Of a stretch of 64,000 bases of DNA, positions 1 to 58,895 are shown one piece after another (positions within the stretch are counted from its first letter, which is position 1; every line of letters starts with the position of its first letter). The DNA comes from an uncultured Pseudomonadales bacterium (GTDB taxonomy: Bacteria; Patescibacteriota; Microgenomatia; UBA1400). The translations under genes and the position numbers were made by a program. The stretch lies in contig CAZPUR010000003.1 of NCBI GenBank assembly GCA_964589815.1, positions 42,554 to 106,553 on the forward strand. The letters run 5' to 3'. The notes under the pieces are model-generated. The model did no database searches, was not told the DNA's origin, and saw nothing but the letters and a program-made list of their open reading frames with translations.

Positions 1-1708
1 CTTCTACGCCAGCCTCTTCATGTTCGGCTTCATAAGTTTTAAGTTTGTCAAAAAATTTGGCAATGTTGCCGGCCTGGACTTCTTCTTTTTGATTTTTAAC
101 CTCTGCTAATTTTTGGAGCAGACCGCTATCGTCAAGAAAGTAATAAAGGATTTGGCCAGCTGTTTCCTTAGGAATGAGTTTTAAATGGCGGTAGATCATT
201 TTAACAATTTTTTTTATTTTTTCCTTGCTTTTTTCTGAAATTAAAATCTTGTCAACCTGCTCTGCAGCCTCAAACAAAGAAAGATTTATTTTTTTAGCCA
301 GATTCCGCAAAGCAGCAATGTCCCGGGCAGAAATCTTAAAAATATCCAAAGACAAAATTCTGAAAAAAGCGACGTTATCTTCAAAATTATAAATGACTTT
401 AAGATAGGCGATGAGATCTTTAACTTCTTCCTGGCGAAGAAGTTTACCCGGGCCTAAAAATTGGAAAGGAATTCCTTGACGAATAAAGCTTCGGACAAAA
501 GCATCAGCATGATTATTAGCTCGAACCAAAATGGCGACATCTTTATATTGATAAGAGGCTTGCCCTGAATCGTGTTTGCTCTGGTTCAGGCTTAGTTTTT
601 TGATTTCTTGAGCGACTAAATCAGCCTCGTTTTCTACTCGGTCGGTTAAGAAAAACTTGATTTTTTCTCCCTGCCTGCCTGCCGGCAGGCTTTTAATTCT
701 TCTAACAGAGATGAGTTTTTTATCAATATTTTCTTTGATTTCCAAACGGTCAGGGTTATTATGCTGAATTAAATCATAAGCCCGATTTAAAATTTCCTGA
801 GTGGAACGGTAATTTTGGGTTAAAGTAATAATTTTGGCTTGAGGATAGGCTTTTTTGAATTGGAGAACATTGGAAATAGCCGCTCCCCGCCATTTATAAA
901 TAGATTGATCATCGTCGCAAACAACGGTGAGGTTGGCTTTTTTACCTGCCAAGAGTTTTACCAATTGATTCTGGGCAATATTAGTATCTTGGTATTCATC
1001 AACTAGGATATATTTAAATCTTTGACCGTATTGGCGCAAAACATTTTTTCTAGTTCTAAAAAGCTTTAAAGTGTTACTAATTAAATCCCCAAAATCCATC
1101 ACTCCTTCTTTAATTTTCAATTCTTCATATTTTTGATAAGCCTTAGCCAATTCCAAATTTTTCTTCATCTCTTCATTTTGCTCTTTTCGTTTTGCTCTTT
1201 GCTCTTGAGCCCAATGAAGGTAATCATTGGGCGATACGTCCTCGTCTTTCAACCGGCTAAAATGGTTTAATAAACCATTTAAAAATTTGGTGGGATTACC
1301 AGCCGGTCGAAAATAATCTAATTTAAAGTCAAACAAATGTTTTTTTAAAAAAAGCAAAGTTTCTGCCTCGGTCATTAAAACATAATGGGGATCAAGACCG
1401 ATGTGTAGAGCTTCATCTCTGAGAATTCGATCGCAAAAAGAATGAAAAGTAGAAATCCACATTTGGAAAAAGCCGTAGGGCATAATTTGATCAACTCTTT
1501 CTTCCATTTCCAGAGCCGCTTTTTCGGTAAAAGTTAAAGCCAGAATTTCTTGAGGTTTAGCCTGTTTAGAAGAGATAAGATACTTTATTCTTTCGGTGAC
1601 GACGGTCGTTTTTCCTGTTCCCGCGCCGGCAATAATTAAAAGCGGATCTTGACCAAATTTAATTGCCTGAAGTTGTTCTTTGTTTAATTTCTTTTTTTCC
1701 TTGTCCAT
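1..1708 (-). CDS. UvrD/PcrA-family ATP-dependent DNA helicase, N-terminal ~569 codons (C-terminus beyond window start)
   Basis: Absent from the ORF track because it is open to the window edge. Own minus-strand translation from ATG at 1708 gives MDKEKKKLNKEQLQAIKFGQDPLLIIAGAGTGKTTVVTERIKYL (Walker A). ILVDEYQDTN motif lies near 985-1012. Confidence 0.85.
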   Translation of the reverse strand, partial: MDKEKKKLNKEQLQAIKFGQDPLLIIAGAGTGKTTVVTERIKYLISSKQAKPQEILALTFTEKAALEMEERVDQIMPYGFFQMWISTFHSFCDRILRDEALHIGLDPHYVLMTEAETLLFLKKHLFDFKLDYFRPAGNPTKFLNGLLNHFSRLKDEDVSPNDYLHWAQEQRAKRKEQNEEMKKNLELAKAYQKYEELKIKEGVMDFGDLISNTLKLFRTRKNVLRQYGQRFKYILVDEYQDTNIAQNQLVKLLAGKKANLTVVCDDDQSIYKWRGAAISNVLQFKKAYPQAKIITLTQNYRSTQEILNRAYDLIQHNNPDRLEIKENIDKKLISVRRIKSLPAGRQGEKIKFFLTDRVENEADLVAQEIKKLSLNQSKHDSGQASYQYKDVAILVRANNHADAFVRSFIRQGIPFQFLGPGKLLRQEEVKDLIAYLKVIYNFEDNVAFFRILSLDIFKISARDIAALRNLAKKINLSLFEAAEQVDKILISEKSKEKIKKIVKMIYRHLKLIPKETAGQILYYFLDDSGLLQKLAEVKNQKEEVQAGNIAKFFDKLKTYEAEHEEAGVE

Positions 1709-5147: not shown

Positions 5148-5984
5148 ATGCTAGTTGATACTCATTGCCATCTTAATTTTCAGATTTTTAAGGGTAGAGT
5201 TAGAGAAGTTATTGAGGGGGCGAAAAAAGCGGGTGTGGAGAAAATGATTGTGCCAGGAACAGACTTGGAGACTAGTAAAAAAGCAGTAGAACTGGCTGAA
5301 AAATATCAAGAGGTTTATGCGGCCGTAGGCATTCATCCCCACCATGCTAGAATTAAGAATTTAGAATTAAGAATTAAGAATAAGTTAAAAGCATTAGCTA
5401 GAAATAAGTCTGTGGTGGCCATTGGAGAATGTGGTCTGGATTATTATCAATATCAGAAAACAAAATACAAAGATTATAAAATTAATGATCAGTTCAAACA
5501 AAAGCAAAAAGAAGTCTTCAAAATACAGATAGATTTAGCTAGGGAGCTAAAACTTCCTTTAATTATTCATAATCGTAAAGCTTCTGAGGACATTTTAGAA
5601 ATAATTGGAAATTGGAAACCTGCCCGTCCGGCAGGCGGGTTGGAAATTGGAAATTTTAATGGCGTTTTCCATTGTTTTGAAGGTGACGAGAAATTATTAA
5701 CCTGGGGACTAAAACACAATTTTTATTTTGGTATTACCGGGAATGTAACTTATAATGAAAAGATCAAGCAATCAATTAGAAAAATTCCTTTAAAGAATCT
5801 ATTAACCGAAACTGATACTCCTTATTTAGTTCCGGAACCTTTACATTCTCAAAAAATCTTTCCAAATGAACCTAAAAATGTTAAAATACTGGCCAAACGA
5901 ATCGCTGAGATAAAAGGCGATTCTTTTTTAAGAATAGAAGAACAAACAACCAAGAATGCAGTTCAATTATTTAAATTAGAATAA
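5148..5984 (+). CDS. tatD: TatD-family metal-dependent hydrolase/DNase
   Basis: MLVDTHCHLNF start, GECGLDYY and LIIHNR motifs. Confidence 0.9.
   Translation: MLVDTHCHLNFQIFKGRVREVIEGAKKAGVEKMIVPGTDLETSKKAVELAEKYQEVYAAVGIHPHHARIKNLELRIKNKLKALARNKSVVAIGECGLDYYQYQKTKYKDYKINDQFKQKQKEVFKIQIDLARELKLPLIIHNRKASEDILEIIGNWKPARPAGGLEIGNFNGVFHCFEGDEKLLTWGLKHNFYFGITGNVTYNEKIKQSIRKIPLKNLLTETDTPYLVPEPLHSQKIFPNEPKNVKILAKRIAEIKGDSFLRIEEQTTKNAVQLFKLE
5605..5653 (+). repeat. 21-nt GC palindrome (CCTGCCCGTCCGGCAGGCGGG) flanked by 14-nt perfect direct repeats TTGGAAATTGGAAA, inside tatD
   Basis: Read directly: left repeat 5605-5618, core 5619-5639, right repeat 5640-5653. The ORF stays open (KPARPAGGLEIGN). Confidence 0.85.
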
Positions 5985-13651: not shown

Positions 13652-13733
13652 AAGGCTATTAAGTGGCCTAGTGGTCTGGCAAAGCCAGATCTGGCTCTTG
13701 CCAGACGAAGTGATCCTGTTAGAATTAATTTTA

Positions 13734-13985
13734 ATGTTTTATGTTTATGTTTTGAAAAGTCGCACTAATGGAGATATTTACGTTGGTTACTCAAGAGATT
13801 TAAGGACAAGGATTGATGCACACAACAAAGGTAAAGTAAAATCAACTAAAGCTTATAAACCCTGGATACTGGTTTATTATGAAGCTTATAAAGGTAAAAA
13901 AGACGCTACCAAACGAGAGAAAGAGTTAAAATTACACGCGGCGAAGAAATTGTTAATCGAACATCTAAAAGAAAGTCTTAAGTAA
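13734..13985 (+). CDS. small GIY-YIG nuclease-family protein (URI domain only)
   Basis: MFYVYVLKSRTNGDIYVGYSRDLRTRIDAHN has GIY..YIG-type motifs plus a conserved R and KREKELK. The caller's GTG at 13671 lies inside hairpins. Confidence 0.8.
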   Translation: MFYVYVLKSRTNGDIYVGYSRDLRTRIDAHNKGKVKSTKAYKPWILVYYEAYKGKKDATKREKELKLHAAKKLLIEHLKESLK

Positions 13986-13988
13986 CAT

Positions 13989-14061
13989 GGCCTAGTGGCG
14001 AAGAAGCTAACGCAGCTGTCTGCAAAACAGCTATACGCCGGTGCAACTCCGGCCTAGGCCT
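13989..14061 (+). tRNA. tRNA-Cys (anticodon GCA), atypical D- and T-loops
   Basis: Manual cloverleaf: acceptor GGCCTAG/CTAGGCC, anticodon stem GCTGT/ACAGC with loop CTGCAAA, T stem GCCGG/CCGGC. T-loop is TGCAACT (G where U55 is expected) and the D-loop lacks GG. Confidence 0.7.
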
Positions 14062-14104
14062 CTTTTTTATAACCTAAGATAGTGGATAGGATTGTGAATA
14101 GGAC

Positions 14105-29723: not shown

Positions 29724-29730
29724 AGGAGAA

Positions 29731-29834
29731 TTGTTACATTGTTACATTGTTACATTGTTGATAGTTTTTTGTAATACAAATCGGAAGGCTACTGTTAGCA
29801 ATGAAGCAATGAAGCAATGAAGCAATGAAGCAAT
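29731..29834 (+). repeat. foldback spacer: (TTGTTACA)x3 + TTGTTGAT on the 5' arm, (GCAATGAA)x4 on the 3' arm
   Basis: Units pair in register (per 8 nt: 6 Watson-Crick, 1 G.U, 1 A.A). Helix base at 29731/29833. Confidence 0.8.
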
Positions 29835-30222: not shown

Positions 30223-30354
30223 GGAATTACAAATCACAAGCACCAAATATCAAATAAATTCAAAGCACCAAATTAAAAATTCTAAACGTTTTGAATTTAA
30301 AAATTTTAATTTGAATATTGTTTGGAGTTTGGAGTTTGGAGTTTGGAGTTTTCC
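30223..30354 (+). repeat. foldback spacer, ACCAAAT/ATTTGGT family copy C1, with (TTTGGAG)x4
   Basis: GGAATT..(A)GTTTTCC closing pairs, AAATTCAAA/TTTGAATTT core. Shares AATTACAAATCACAA (15 nt) with 33910-33924. Confidence 0.7.
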
Positions 30355-32940: not shown

Positions 32941-33091
32941 GTGTTAATTAAGTAGTTGATTAACTCGTTAACGCTCGTGTTAATTAGGTAGTTAATTAAC
33001 TAGTTTAATATAGTCCTATCAATCAACATGATCCGCCAGCTGGCGGAGAATAAATTAACTATCAATAAACAACTTAATCAACTAAAAAACA
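32941..33091 (+). repeat. foldback spacer, TTAAGTAGTTGATTA family, full copy
   Basis: 33015-33089 is identical over 75 nt to 41177-41251. TAGTTGATTA (32952-61) pairs with TAATCAACTA (33075-84). Carries palindrome TCCGCCAGCTGGCGGA (33032-47). Confidence 0.85.
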
Positions 33092-33653: not shown

Positions 33654-33705
33654 GTGATTAGTCAAAAAAAGACTAATCACTAATCACTAATCACTAATCA
33701 CTAAA
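33654..33705 (+). repeat. 10-bp perfect hairpin (GTGATTAGTC-A7-GACTAATCAC) followed by (TAATCAC)x4
   Basis: The heptamer array 33674-33701 places TAA in all three frames just before the S14 start position. Confidence 0.8.
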
Positions 33706-33891
33706 ATCGCTAAAGTTTCTAAATTTGCTAAACAGCAAAAAAAACCAAAATTTTCTAGCCGGAAGCACAACCGCTGTAAAATTTGCGGTCGACCCAGGGC
33801 CTATATTAGGCTTTTTGGCCTTTGCCGTTTATGTTTTCGTCAAATGGCCCATAAAGGAGAATTACCAGGGGTAACTAAAGCCAGCTGGTAA
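33706..33891 (+). CDS. rpsZ: 30S ribosomal protein S14 type Z (uS14), apparent ATC start
   Basis: Absent from the ORF track. Own translation: (I)[60 protein letters not shown]. 61 codons, CxxC..CxxC, collinear with Zn-type S14. No ATG/GTG/TTG in frame after the stop at 33688-90. Confidence 0.85.
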
Positions 33892-35114: not shown

Positions 35115-35528
35115 ATGATTAAACGTTACAAGCATAAAACGCTTAAAAGAAAAATCAAGATCAGGGCCAAACTTTTGAAAATAGGTCGAAGACCCAGGTT
35201 ATCTGTTTTTCGTTCTAATAAATATATTTATGCCCAGATTATTGATGACCAAAAAGGAAAAACACTGGCGGCGGCTAGTGAAAAAGACATAAAAGAAAAC
35301 TCCAATCCGCCAGCTGGCGGACCAAAACTCCCCCGACCTCGCCTCGGCTCGGCCGAGGGCGGGCAAAACTCCAAGATTAACAGAGCGTTTCAGGTGGGTC
35401 AAATCTTGGCCAAGAAAGCCTTAAAAATAAAGATTAAAAAAGTATATTTTGACCGCGGCGGCTATAAATATCATGGCCTGATTAAAGCCTTAGCTGAGGG
35501 TGCCAGAAAAGGAGGACTGGAGTTCTAA
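35115..35528 (+). CDS. rplR: 50S ribosomal protein L18 (uL18) with a 23-codon GC-rich insertion
   Basis: RLSVFRSNKYIYAQIIDD and GGYKYHG motifs. Insertion NPPAGGPKLPRPRLGSAEGGQNS. Confidence 0.93.
   Translation: MIKRYKHKTLKRKIKIRAKLLKIGRRPRLSVFRSNKYIYAQIIDDQKGKTLAAASEKDIKENSNPPAGGPKLPRPRLGSAEGGQNSKINRAFQVGQILAKKALKIKIKKVYFDRGGYKYHGLIKALAEGARKGGLEF
35295..35371 (+). repeat. two adjacent GC palindromes, each bounded by the 8-nt direct repeat AAAACTCC (three copies)
   Basis: AAAACTCC at 35295, 35323 and 35364. Cores TCCGCCAGCTGGCGGA (35305-20) and CCCGACCTCGCCTCGGCTCGGCCGAGGGCGGG. Periods 28 + 41 = 69 nt. Confidence 0.85.
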
Positions 35529-41119: not shown

Positions 41120-41253
41120 ATATAGTTATTAAGTGGTTGATTAGCTCGCAACGCTCGCGTTAATTAGGTAGTTAATCCTATCAATCAACATGATCCGCCA
41201 GCTGGCGGAGAATAAATTAACTATCAATAAACAACTTAATCAACTAAAAAATC
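41120..41253 (+). repeat. foldback spacer, TTAAGTAGTTGATTA family, second full copy
   Basis: 41177-41251 is identical to 33015-33089. Lacks ~18 nt present in the other copy. Ends at the rpmJ ATG. Confidence 0.85.
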
Positions 41254-42245: not shown

Positions 42246-42865
42246 TGGCTAAATATACAGACGCAAAATGTAGACTTTGTCGCCGCGAAGGCGAAAAATT
42301 GTTCTTAAAAGGCGAACGTTGTTATTCTACCAAGTGCCCGATTGAAAAAAAAGGAGCGGTATCCCCAGGAGTTCACGGTCCTAGAAGAAGGGGTAAAGTT
42401 TCAGAATACGGTCTTCAATTAAGAGAAAAACAGAAGGCCAAAAGAACTTATGGGATTTTAGAAAGACAATTTAAAAATTATTTTAAAAAATCCTCTACTC
42501 AGAAAAAAGATACTGGTTTGAGATTACTACAGCTGTTGGAGACTAGGTTGGATAATGTGGTGTTTCGGGGCGGGTTGCTTTTTTCTCGCTCTTCGGCTCG
42601 GCAGGTAATCCGTCATGGTTTTTGTTTGGTAGATGGTAAAAAAGTAGATATACCTAGTTTCTCAGCTAAGCCAAGCCAGATAGTTAGCTTGAACTCCAAA
42701 GGATTAAAAATTAAAGAGGTCAAAAGCGCTTTGGCCGCTAAAATTGATATTCCTAAATGGTTAAAAAGAAAAGCCGCTCTGGTTAAAGTTGAGCGCCTGC
42801 CAGAAAGAGAAGAAATGGAAAAAAATATTAATGAACAATTAATTATTGAGTTTTATTCTCGATAA
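42245..42865 (+). CDS. rpsD: 30S ribosomal protein S4 (uS4)
   Basis: AKYTDAKCRLCRREGEKLFLKGERC start. S4 RNA-binding domain. Confidence 0.96.
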   Translation: MAKYTDAKCRLCRREGEKLFLKGERCYSTKCPIEKKGAVSPGVHGPRRRGKVSEYGLQLREKQKAKRTYGILERQFKNYFKKSSTQKKDTGLRLLQLLETRLDNVVFRGGLLFSRSSARQVIRHGFCLVDGKKVDIPSFSAKPSQIVSLNSKGLKIKEVKSALAAKIDIPKWLKRKAALVKVERLPEREEMEKNINEQLIIEFYSR

Positions 42866-52137: not shown

Positions 52138-53216
52138 GAAGCTGAAATTTTTCCTCCCCCCAAACATAGCTTACCATCATAAAAAACGGCAAATTGGCCT
52201 GGAGTAATAGCTCTTTGAGGTTGATTAAAAACAAGCTTGAGTTGTTTATTTTGGGGAGGGTAAAGAACAGCTGGTTGTTCTTGGTGACCATACCTGATTT
52301 TTGCCCTTACTTTAATTGTTTTTATGGGTGTTTTTCCAGAGATAAAATTAAAAGGCGAAAGCTCTATTTCTTTTTGAAGCAAATCTTTTTCATTTTGAGT
52401 CACAATAACTTGGTTGTTTCGAGAATCCAGTTGTTTAACAAAATATGGTCCTCCGGAAAGACCAATTCTTTTTCTTTGACCAATAGTATAAAAATGTAAA
52501 CCCTGATGTTTACCCAAAACATTACCTTGAGTATTAATGATTTTTCCTGGTTTTTGACCCAGCCTTGTTTTCAAAAACTCAGTAATTTTTTTGCTCGGAC
52601 AATAACAAAAATCCTGACTTGACTTTACTATAATTGAACTGCGCCTGCCTGCCGGCAAGGCAGGGCCGCTATTAAATAATAGTAATTTTCTAGCCATTTT
52701 TATTACTTGTTTTTTAGTATATTCTCCTAAAGGGAAAACAATATGTTTTAATTGTTCCCGGGTTAAAAAAGAAAGATAATAGGTTTGATCCTTGGCTCTA
52801 TCCTTGGCTTTCAAGAGTTGATAGCTTTTAGCTTTTAGCTTTAAGCTTTCAGCTATTCTCGCGTAGTGTCCTGTTGCCACATAATTTATTTTTCTTTTTT
52901 TAGCCAATTCCAAAAGCTTTTTAAATTTAAGTTGGGGATTACAGATAATACAAGGATTGGGTGTCCGGCCATTTTTATATTCATTAATAAAATAATCCAC
53001 TACCTTTTGTTTAAATTCTTTTTTAACATCCAAAATATAATGGGGAATTTTTAACATTTGGCAGACTTTTTTTGCACTTGCGAAAGATCTTTTGTTTTGC
53101 CAGGCAGGGATATCTAAAGAAACGCCAATCGGCTCCCAACCGTGTTTTTTCAAAAAAAAAGCGGCCATGGAAGAATCAACTCCGCCAGATAGTCCCACAA
53201 TAATTTTTTCCTTCAT
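52134..53216 (-). CDS. mnmA: tRNA 2-thiouridine(34) synthase MnmA, with a GC-palindrome insertion
   Basis: VGLSGGVDSS PP-loop and NPCIICN motifs. Insertion GPALPAGRRSS at 52641-52669. Confidence 0.93.
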   Translation of the reverse strand: MKEKIIVGLSGGVDSSMAAFFLKKHGWEPIGVSLDIPAWQNKRSFASAKKVCQMLKIPHYILDVKKEFKQKVVDYFINEYKNGRTPNPCIICNPQLKFKKLLELAKKRKINYVATGHYARIAESLKLKAKSYQLLKAKDRAKDQTYYLSFLTREQLKHIVFPLGEYTKKQVIKMARKLLLFNSGPALPAGRRSSIIVKSSQDFCYCPSKKITEFLKTRLGQKPGKIINTQGNVLGKHQGLHFYTIGQRKRIGLSGGPYFVKQLDSRNNQVIVTQNEKDLLQKEIELSPFNFISGKTPIKTIKVRAKIRYGHQEQPAVLYPPQNKQLKLVFNQPQRAITPGQFAVFYDGKLCLGGGKISAS

Positions 53217-58504: not shown

Positions 58505-58516
58505 CCTGCCGGCAGG
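58505..58516. repeat. intergenic copy of the palindrome CCTGCCGGCAGG
   Basis: Same core as 677-690, 5619-39 and 52641-69. Confidence 0.85.
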
Positions 58517-58619
58517 CAGGTTTCGCGTCTAAAAGTTTAGCGCTATTTAGTGTTAATTTTTAGTGTTATTTCGTGTTTAGAAATTTAGCGTATTTCGTGT
58601 CTAGGAGGTGAGATAATTA

Positions 58620-58895
58620 GTGAAAAAATCCAACTTAGTCGAAGTAGTAGCTAAAAAAGCCCATCTGACCAAAAATGCGGCCAAAGAAGCGATGGATGTT
58701 TTTTTAGATGAACTTAAGAGACTCTTACAAAAAGGAGAAAAAATAACTTTGTCCGGCTTTGGCACTTTCAAGGTTAAAAAAGTTGCCAATAAAACAGGTA
58801 GGAAAAGCCCTAAAGACCCGACGCCAATGGTGCACAAGTCTCATCGAGTAGTTCGTTTTATTGTCAGCAAAACCCTCCGCAAGTCCGTTAAATAA
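58620..58895 (+). CDS. hup: HU/IHF-family DNA-binding protein, GTG start
   Basis: KSNLVEVVAKKAHLTKNAAKEAMDVFLDELK...LSGFGTFKVKK. SD AGGAGGTGA. Confidence 0.92.
   Translation: MKKSNLVEVVAKKAHLTKNAAKEAMDVFLDELKRLLQKGEKITLSGFGTFKVKKVANKTGRKSPKDPTPMVHKSHRVVRFIVSKTLRKSVK

Follow-up and report, generated by a model that had tools for sequence, protein, structure and literature searches.

The 64-kb stretch of DNA analyzed here (64,000 nucleotides, positions 42,554 to 106,553 of the forward strand of contig CAZPUR010000003.1, assembly GCA_964589815.1; hereafter the window) comes from an uncultured bacterium of the lineage Patescibacteriota, Microgenomatia, UBA1400, and it carries a tatD gene in which a short GC-rich palindrome lies between two copies of a direct repeat. 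The host gene (5148..5984, forward strand) is intact and encodes a tatD/ycfH-type metal-dependent hydrolase of 278 aa that belongs to PF01026. The protein matches the solved TatD/YcfH structures 2gzx and 6l25 with E values of about 1e-44 and has the hallmarks of that family, a metal-dependent TIM-barrel hydrolase with His/Glu/Asp ligands. PF01026 is assigned to all of its homologues in precomputed annotation, and the catalytic residues H6, H8, E94, H141, H175, and D223 are invariant across our alignment. The gene order TrpR-like/MetRS/TatD/GT2/PMT_2 is kept in the related loci L002, L004, and L106, and the genes compared below are therefore true orthologues.

A GC-rich palindrome between perfect repeats in tatD

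The repeat, TTGGAAATTGGAAA, is 14 nt long and is present as two perfect copies on the forward strand at 5605-5618 and 5640-5653, with a spacing of 35 nt. The interval between them (5619-5639, forward strand) is occupied by CCTGCCCGTCCGGCAGGCGGG, a 21-nt GC-rich imperfect palindrome. Codon by codon, the site reads ATT GGA AAT TGG AAA / CCT GCC CGT CCG GCA GGC GGG / TTG GAA ATT GGA AAT, such that the palindrome contributes exactly seven codons, PARPAGG (residues 158-164). The reading frame differs between the repeats, the left copy giving (I)GNWK and the right copy LEIGN. These features agree exactly with an earlier note on this DNA, made from the sequence alone, which had described the two repeats, the 21-nt GC block within an intact open reading frame (ORF), the difference in frame, and the 35-nt period. 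The block is 18/21 G+C (86%), as opposed to 33% GC for the gene and 37.4% for the window. The palindrome is imperfect, its best stem (CCTGCC/GGCAGG) comprising 6 bp around a 5-nt loop, with a folding energy of -10.0 kcal/mol for the 21-mer alone.

This repeat-palindrome-repeat structure is not a product of chance. Third-order Markov controls give an expectation of 0.14 direct repeats of at least 14 nt with 15-60 nt spacing per 64 kb, and six are observed; five of these six pairs are plain tandem arrays, and the tatD pair alone encloses unrelated sequence. The 21-mer is unique in the window at up to three mismatches, with 0 matches across 100 shuffles. An assembly artefact is ruled out by an independent Logan assembly from SRR9706179, which is identical to the window over 4.8 kb.

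The flanking repeats appear to be halves of an older heptanucleotide array

We compared the site across about 36 aligned TatD protein orthologues, eight of which were compared at the DNA level. The GC block is present in none of them (0 of about 36 proteins and 0/8 DNA sequences). In four syntenic orthologues that lack the palindrome (P0004, P0006, P0008, and P0013), the segment preceding the GVFHCF motif reads I/L-E-N-[FCW]-[KR]-L-[KR]-I-E-N-L, with the IEN motif already doubled, and it equals the window's I-G-N-W-K^L-E-I-G-N-F in length once the seven extra residues (at the caret) are left out. At the DNA level, leaving exactly 21 nt out of the window gives a gapless alignment with all four, and 25-27 of 33 positions are identical. 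The site in L002, for example, reads ATT GAA AAT TGG AGA TTG AGA ATT GAA AAT TTA. Its first five codons, and the equivalent codons in L107, L108, and L110, are homologous to the left flank in the window (5604..5618, forward strand; (ATTGGAA)x2 plus A, read I-G-N-W-K), and its last six are homologous to the right flank (5640..5656, forward strand; (TTGGAAA)x2 plus TTT, read L-E-I-G-N-F).

Joined together, the two flanks form an in-frame heptanucleotide array, (ATTGGAA)x4, and the orthologues without the palindrome contain (ATTGRAA)x4 uninterrupted, encoding I-E-N-x-K-L-K-I-E-N. Lag 7 is the strongest periodicity in 7/8 of the tatD orthologues (p ≤ 0.0004 each), and the repeating unit varies by lineage: the group closest to the window has ATTGRAA, whereas P0016 has ATACTAA and P0002 has ATCAAAC. 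Because both flank copies are present in orthologues that lack the palindrome, the heptamer array is ancestral and evolves in concert, with the flanking 14-nt repeats as its two halves. As judged from these alignments, the palindrome is placed at a unit boundary in the exact middle of the array, for a net gain of 21 nt, or seven codons.

Dispersed palindrome families in the window and in related genomes

The tatD palindrome can be related to a family of GC-rich palindromes, family A, with the consensus CCTGCC(TGCC)GGCAGG(CAGG). The tatD 21-mer is three edits away from this consensus, as compared with five edits for the best of 5000 composition-matched random 21-mers. A near-twin, CCTGCCTCGCCGTCAGGCGGG (read PASPSGG), is found in the helicase gene of L106, the closest relative, with the same ends, length, and frame, and the two copies have in common the outer stem CCTGCC/GGCGGG, which is compatible with G-U pairing. 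Because of this family membership, with three edits versus at least five for random words and a near-twin in another gene, the tatD block is a diverged copy of a dispersed repeat family and not a sequence that arose de novo.

In 455 kb of AT-rich DNA, four Microgenomates genomes share an exact family A 21-mer, A21 (CCTGCCTGCCGGCAAGGCAGG), at four sites that are not homologous to one another; its chance expectation, by our own arithmetic from base composition, is about 5e-9. It is found in the window in mnmA (52644..52664, reverse strand), in-frame and read as …FNSGPALPAGRRSS…, and also in L004, L091, and L112. The exact 16-mer of a second family, family B (TCCGCCAGCTGGCGGA), occurs five times in three genomes. 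The core CCTGCC…GGCAGG is also present in related genomes, including at two other tatD positions and in the same tatD loop in L014. Further family A palindromes in the window are a 21-nt in-frame copy (671..691, reverse strand; read SLPAGRQ) in a UvrD/PDDEXK-type helicase gene cut off by the start of the window and an intergenic copy, CCTGCCGGCAGGCAGG, upstream of hup (58505..58520). Family B palindromes lie at 33032..33047 and 41194..41209, within the two copies of a 76-nt exact intergenic repeat located upstream of rplE (33014-33089) and upstream of rpmJ (41176-41251), respectively. Five palindromes in the window are in-frame, across four genes, versus about five that are intergenic, and no doublets occur in the AT-rich loci. 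Scans of viral contigs for exact A21 and B17 words returned matches only in high-GC (0.48-0.70) contigs, mostly in an IRQLAD/E coding context; these are uninformative, since the composition of such contigs already predicts these words.

Different GC-hairpin families are found in-frame in other tatD orthologues (L031 at 2075-2094; L033, with three copies; L015; L049; L016; and L060). These hairpins include a perfect 20-nt palindrome, GGACAGGTCGCGACCTGTCC (read VGTGRDL), the CATTCCCGCGGAGGCGGGAATC type (read IPAEAGI or IPAKAGI), and CCCCGCGCCTTCGGCGGGG, and several unrelated palindrome families are therefore involved. Lineage-specific tatD inserts as a whole show a modest rise in GC (0.44 versus 0.375 for their genes), and some of them are not palindromes.

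Parallel insertions in other genes

Two further genes of the window, and one relative, show a similar arrangement. The window helicase reads RRIK[SLPAGRQ]GEKIK, as opposed to RRLK|GKKIK in L106 and RQFT|GEKIE in L004, a gap of exactly seven residues. In rplR (35115-35528), which encodes ribosomal protein L18, a 57-nt in-frame insert (35307..35363, forward strand) is made up of a family B palindrome, CCGCCAGCTGGCGG (35307-35320), a flank-copy spacer, ACCAAAACTC, and a 33-nt GC palindrome. The insert is flanked by AAAACTCC at 35296-35303 and 35365-35372, such that three AAAACTCC copies alternate with two palindromes. Removing the 57 nt from the window leaves a gapless alignment with the uninserted L18 orthologue P0126/L111, in which imperfect versions of both flank copies are already present. 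Likewise, P0123 L18 reads KKLKTK[PACRQGR]NEKLKTK versus KKRKTK|NKKLKTK in P0127, placing 21 nt between existing copies, and N-PPAGG-K fills the same L18 loop in four divergent orthologues. Insertion between existing repeat copies without duplication thus appears to recur in the window helicase and in P0123 L18 (seven codons each) and in the window L18 (57 nt).

The L18 loop also varies in length among relatives, whose proteins range from 110 to 179 aa, and several of these have a family A or B palindrome there.

Heptamer arrays and their association with palindromes

A second in-frame heptamer array is found in tatD itself, (AGAATTA)x4.7 at 5349..5383 (forward strand), read RIKNLELRIKNK and without a palindrome in the window. 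The loop in which it lies, after the HPHH motif, is a second hotspot (window 5349-5383; L004 10187-10273; L106 6187-6285). This loop holds a 24-nt family A palindrome in P0016, with EIRN on either side, and a family B palindrome in P0002, set between ATCAAAA heptamers; the flank copies co-vary by lineage (IKN/IKN, IMN/IMN, IRN/IRN). The window as a whole contains four period-7 arrays, with 0.4 expected. At least six palindromes are embedded in heptamer arrays, and in 364 kb of low-GC loci, 3/48 palindromic GC islands are flanked by direct repeats of at least 10 nt, versus 0.1% under a null of random genome positions. The gene mnmA contains an in-frame (TAGCTTT)x4.7 array (52822-52854) 178 nt from its family A palindrome, and arrays and palindromes can therefore share a gene without adjoining.

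Predicted effect on the TatD protein

The zero frame reads through the tatD insert and matches the orthologues on both sides, and the 21 nt are presumably translated as PARPAGG. In an AlphaFold2 model of TatD (mean predicted local distance difference test score, pLDDT, of 87.6), a helix at residues 146-154 is followed by coil (155-171) and a strand (172-175). The insert, residues 158-164, overlaps the stretch with pLDDT below 50 (residues 161-167) and is placed by the model in a low-confidence loop ahead of the strand bearing the catalytic His175. This helix-to-strand connector is 12 residues long in the solved Staphylococcus aureus and Thermotoga maritima enzymes, 14 in close orthologues, and 21 in the window. 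By general TIM-barrel geometry, the loop should face away from the catalytic ends of the strands. PARPAGG is most likely a tolerated loop extension, and the insert is probably near-neutral for TatD.

Several recoding and RNA-level functions were considered and rejected for the element. An intrinsic terminator or attenuator is not indicated, as no T-run follows the stem and the site is not called terminator-like. A structured RNA finds no Rfam match in the window, and the 71-nt context of the 21-mer is no more stably folded than its shuffles (z = -0.28). No X XXY YYZ motif for a programmed -1 frameshift lies upstream of 5619, and a translational bypass that skipped the 35 nt from one repeat to the other would resume in the wrong frame and reach a TAA at 5657-5659.

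Origin of the insertion

We consider it likely that the 21-nt block in tatD is a lineage-specific, in-frame insertion of a dispersed GC-rich palindrome into a pre-existing heptamer array, without target duplication. The earlier note's central idea, a frame-neutral insertion of a palindromic element, is borne out by the absence of the block from all of the approximately 36 aligned orthologues and by its closeness, at three edits, to the family A consensus. Survival of such an insert would be decided only by its length, as a multiple of three, and by a permissive loop position, because such GC-rich palindromes are free of stop codons in every frame. With less certainty, the element may have arrived by copy-and-paste without target duplication. 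The mover could be a hairpin-recognizing enzyme acting on single-stranded DNA, with a logic like that of REP/RAYT systems (repetitive extragenic palindromes and their REP-associated tyrosine transposases) or of IS200/IS605 elements, or the element could have moved through template switching in replication or repair. Enzymes of the HUH/Y1 type are not expected to duplicate their target. Heptamer arrays, being prone to slippage, would be favored as landing sites, since forks stall in them and single-stranded DNA is exposed. Whether a putative hairpin-recognizing enzyme moves these elements we regard as evenly balanced.

Some observations weigh against this reading. The closest TatD shares 68% identity, the 90% clusters of both TatD and the window L18 are singletons, no near-identical empty-site allele was found, and a metagenome scan for an empty-site tatD allele returned only relatives at most 60% identical; a gain here, versus repeated loss elsewhere, therefore rests on parsimony. 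The flanks are perfect repeats in the inserted alleles and imperfect in the uninserted orthologues, as a recent duplication would also give. We infer that this perfection stems from lineage-wide homogenization of the array, which we prefer because the second tatD array and the intergenic arrays of the same genome are near-perfect without palindromes. Since the null in the test for flanking repeats was random genome positions, permissive loops that gather repeats and inserts separately could explain the association of the two. Finally, no transposase or RAYT is present among the 72 ORFs of the 64-kb window.

The earlier note had proposed instead an insertion with target duplication. In this model, the element entered one copy of TTGGAAA (or of the 14-mer) and doubled it, leaving a 49-nt transposition footprint and a 42-nt (14-codon) gain. 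The perfect 14-nt direct repeats abutting the palindrome, the similar repeat-palindrome-repeat layout in L004 tatD, L106 tatD, and the window L18, and the greater perfection of the flanks in inserted alleles all speak for such an event. However, a MITE-like target duplication (MITE, miniature inverted-repeat transposable element) leaves the direct repeat single-copy at the empty site, whereas P0004, P0006, P0008, and P0013 hold both copies at equal length without any palindrome. A 35-nt gain, composed of a 14-nt duplication and the 21-nt element, would break the frame, and a single-heptamer ancestor would leave a 7-residue connector, as opposed to 12-14 residues in all relatives and solved structures. 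The L18 and helicase comparisons contradict the model likewise. The alignment with TatD orthologues and structures that the note had suggested thus recovers the very pattern it named as incompatible with its reading, an equal-length segment with the motif duplicated and no palindrome; the gain is 21 nt instead of 42, target duplication is very improbable, and the flanking repeat at the tatD site is not a transposition footprint. A related idea is that palindromes have repeatedly inserted, with short target duplications, and been excised again, and that the heptamer arrays are the scars of this process; arrays in uninserted orthologues would then be sites emptied of earlier elements, and the window would have retained or re-acquired one palindrome. 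Lineage-specific units (ATTGGAA, ATACTAA, ATCAAAC) at the same loop, at conserved length, do imply ongoing turnover, palindromes and arrays co-occur, and the alternation of three repeat copies with two palindromes in the window L18 is suggestive, but single 7-nt units cannot enter a coding region without a frameshift, many perfect intergenic arrays have no palindrome nearby, array length is conserved and not growing, and excision intermediates were not seen. We therefore judge this cycle of insertion and excision improbable as well.

Two other explanations would dispense with a dedicated mobile element or give the insert a function. A break or stalled fork in the array may have been filled by template switching from another palindrome copy, with no dedicated machinery, and the lack of target duplication, the position at a repeat-unit boundary, the lack of a transposase in the window, and the clear slippage activity of the arrays are all consistent with such repair. 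Against this, genomes with only 50-70% identity in their housekeeping proteins have exact sequences of 16-21 nt in common, and capture of random filler would not prefer the same few palindromes; this conservation favors sequence-specific recognition or selection over random filler, and we view enzyme-free repair as unlikely. The hairpin might also act at the RNA or DNA level in tatD, as a terminator or attenuator, an RNase site, a protein-binding site, or a recoding signal, or PARPAGG might have a function in the protein. High conservation of the family sequence across genomes and retention of the outer stem in the tatD copy and its L106 twin would fit with this, but the same family occurs in unrelated genes and in spacers, and the insert is predicted to lie in a low-confidence surface loop. 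We give an adaptive or regulatory role very little credence.

Comparison with known palindromic elements

The elements proposed here to insert into heptamer arrays come closest, in size and behavior, to intragenic REPs. REPs are GC-rich imperfect palindromes of 20-40 bp whose stem-loop is tagged at one end by a conserved tetranucleotide, GTAG or CGTC. Some are intragenic and translated, especially in genes for repair and replication such as uvrA and recBCD (Di Nocera et al. 2013, PMC3733652). In the REPIN/RAYT system, the cognate RAYT is a Y1/HUH transposase, and REPs are mainly extragenic and often arranged as inverted doublets (PMC3116915). The tatD copy is likewise a GC-rich imperfect palindrome within this size range (21 nt, 86% GC, 6-bp stem), and both REPs and the window elements form dispersed families, several to a genome, with intragenic members, here in a UvrD-like helicase gene. 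The terminal tag is lacking, however: the tatD copy begins with CCTG and ends with CGGG, containing CGTC only internally, in the loop (5625-5628), and neither A21 nor the family B 16-mer has GTAG or CGTC. Unlike REPs, moreover, about half of the copies here are intragenic and there are no inverted doublets, the 72 window ORFs include no RAYT, the host is an AT-rich Patescibacteria genome and not one of the REP-rich Proteobacteria, and an association of REPs with heptamer arrays has not been described.

Rickettsia palindromic elements (RPEs) occur in-frame in unrelated housekeeping genes of a reduced genome, at fold-compatible positions, but are about 100-150 bp long and encode a conserved 30-50-aa peptide (PMC10969869). 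The in-frame habit is common to both, whereas the elements described here, at 16-21 nt and 5-7 aa, are much smaller, RPEs being five to seven times longer. Yeast mitochondrial GC clusters, which include the Magnusiomyces "byp" elements, are GC-rich palindromic sequences of about 30-60 nt in a very AT-rich genome; they are mostly intergenic with some in-frame copies (var1) and are regarded as mobile, with AG/TAG terminal repeats that are read as target duplications (PMC8811140). They share the contrast in composition with their surroundings (86% versus 33-37% GC here), but in the window the flanking repeats are ancestral, the insert is frame-neutral without sign of bypassing, and the elements are bacterial and unrelated in sequence.

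The best parallel may be the small dispersed repeats (SDRs) of cyanobacteria, which Elhai and colleagues reportedly described in 2008 as near-identical, hairpin-capable sequences of 21-27 nt that break up otherwise homologous DNA and were proposed to be mobile. SDRs are said to occur in genomes with tandem heptanucleotide repeats (STRR), embedded in such repeats and occasionally in genes; the elements here differ in phylum and in sequence and are GC-rich in an AT-rich background. MITEs are non-autonomous elements of 50-500 bp that create target duplications. The two arms of the palindrome could pass as terminal inverted repeats of such an element, but the size differs, and target duplication was tested for and not found. 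Literature searches for palindromic in-frame insertions in Patescibacteria, or the candidate phyla radiation (CPR), found no relevant report.

Rickettsia, some REP-rich Proteobacteria, and yeast mitochondria are known to have in-frame palindromic repeats; we found none reported in CPR or at a length of 5-7 codons. On its own, the tatD locus is a modest curiosity, and it has wider weight as a case of a genome-wide, apparently undescribed CPR pattern. We put forward, tentatively and with some doubt, that Microgenomates/Patescibacteria may carry a new class of GC-rich palindromic mobile elements of 16-21 nt that enter AT-rich heptanucleotide arrays preferentially and without target duplication, and that, together with array turnover, would continuously remodel surface loops of essential proteins (TatD, L18, MnmA, and a UvrD-like helicase) as well as spacers of the ribosomal-protein operon. 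If truly mobile, these would be among the smallest mobile DNAs known and a steady source of loop-length variation, even for ribosomal proteins in ultra-reduced genomes. What makes the coding heptamer arrays unusual is that their position and length are conserved while the unit, which is not a multiple of three, is lineage-specific. In practice, insertions rich in P, A, G, and R can confuse alignments, phylogenies, and structure prediction of CPR proteins.

Other features of the window

Spacers of the ribosomal-protein operon (29724-29834, 30320-30351, and 33672-33704) are unusually long and filled by perfect 7-8-nt arrays of about 4-5 copies, with differing units: (ATTGTTAC)x3.8, (AGCAATGA)x4.8, (GTTTGGA)x4.6, and (ACTAATC)x4.7. 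The last of these adjoins rpsN (S14, Zn-type, ~33690-33889, ending GVTKASW*), the frame of which runs back into the (ACTAATC)x4.7 array and meets a TAA. No ATG, GTG, or TTG lies between this TAA and the conserved region, so translation starts at a non-canonical codon (ATC?) or else the array overwrote the N terminus.

The 76-nt exact repeat ends just before the rplE and rpmJ start codons, and weaker similarity reaches further upstream; both genes may share it as a leader or promoter, or it may be a small mobile unit. At 58505-58604, a tandem array (24 nt, x3.5) comes immediately after the intergenic family A palindrome, with the start of HU (hup) at 58620. A stand-alone 104-aa GIY-YIG nuclease ORF (13671-13985) lies directly upstream of tRNA-Cys (13989-14062) and is the only nuclease-like gene of the window without a clear role.

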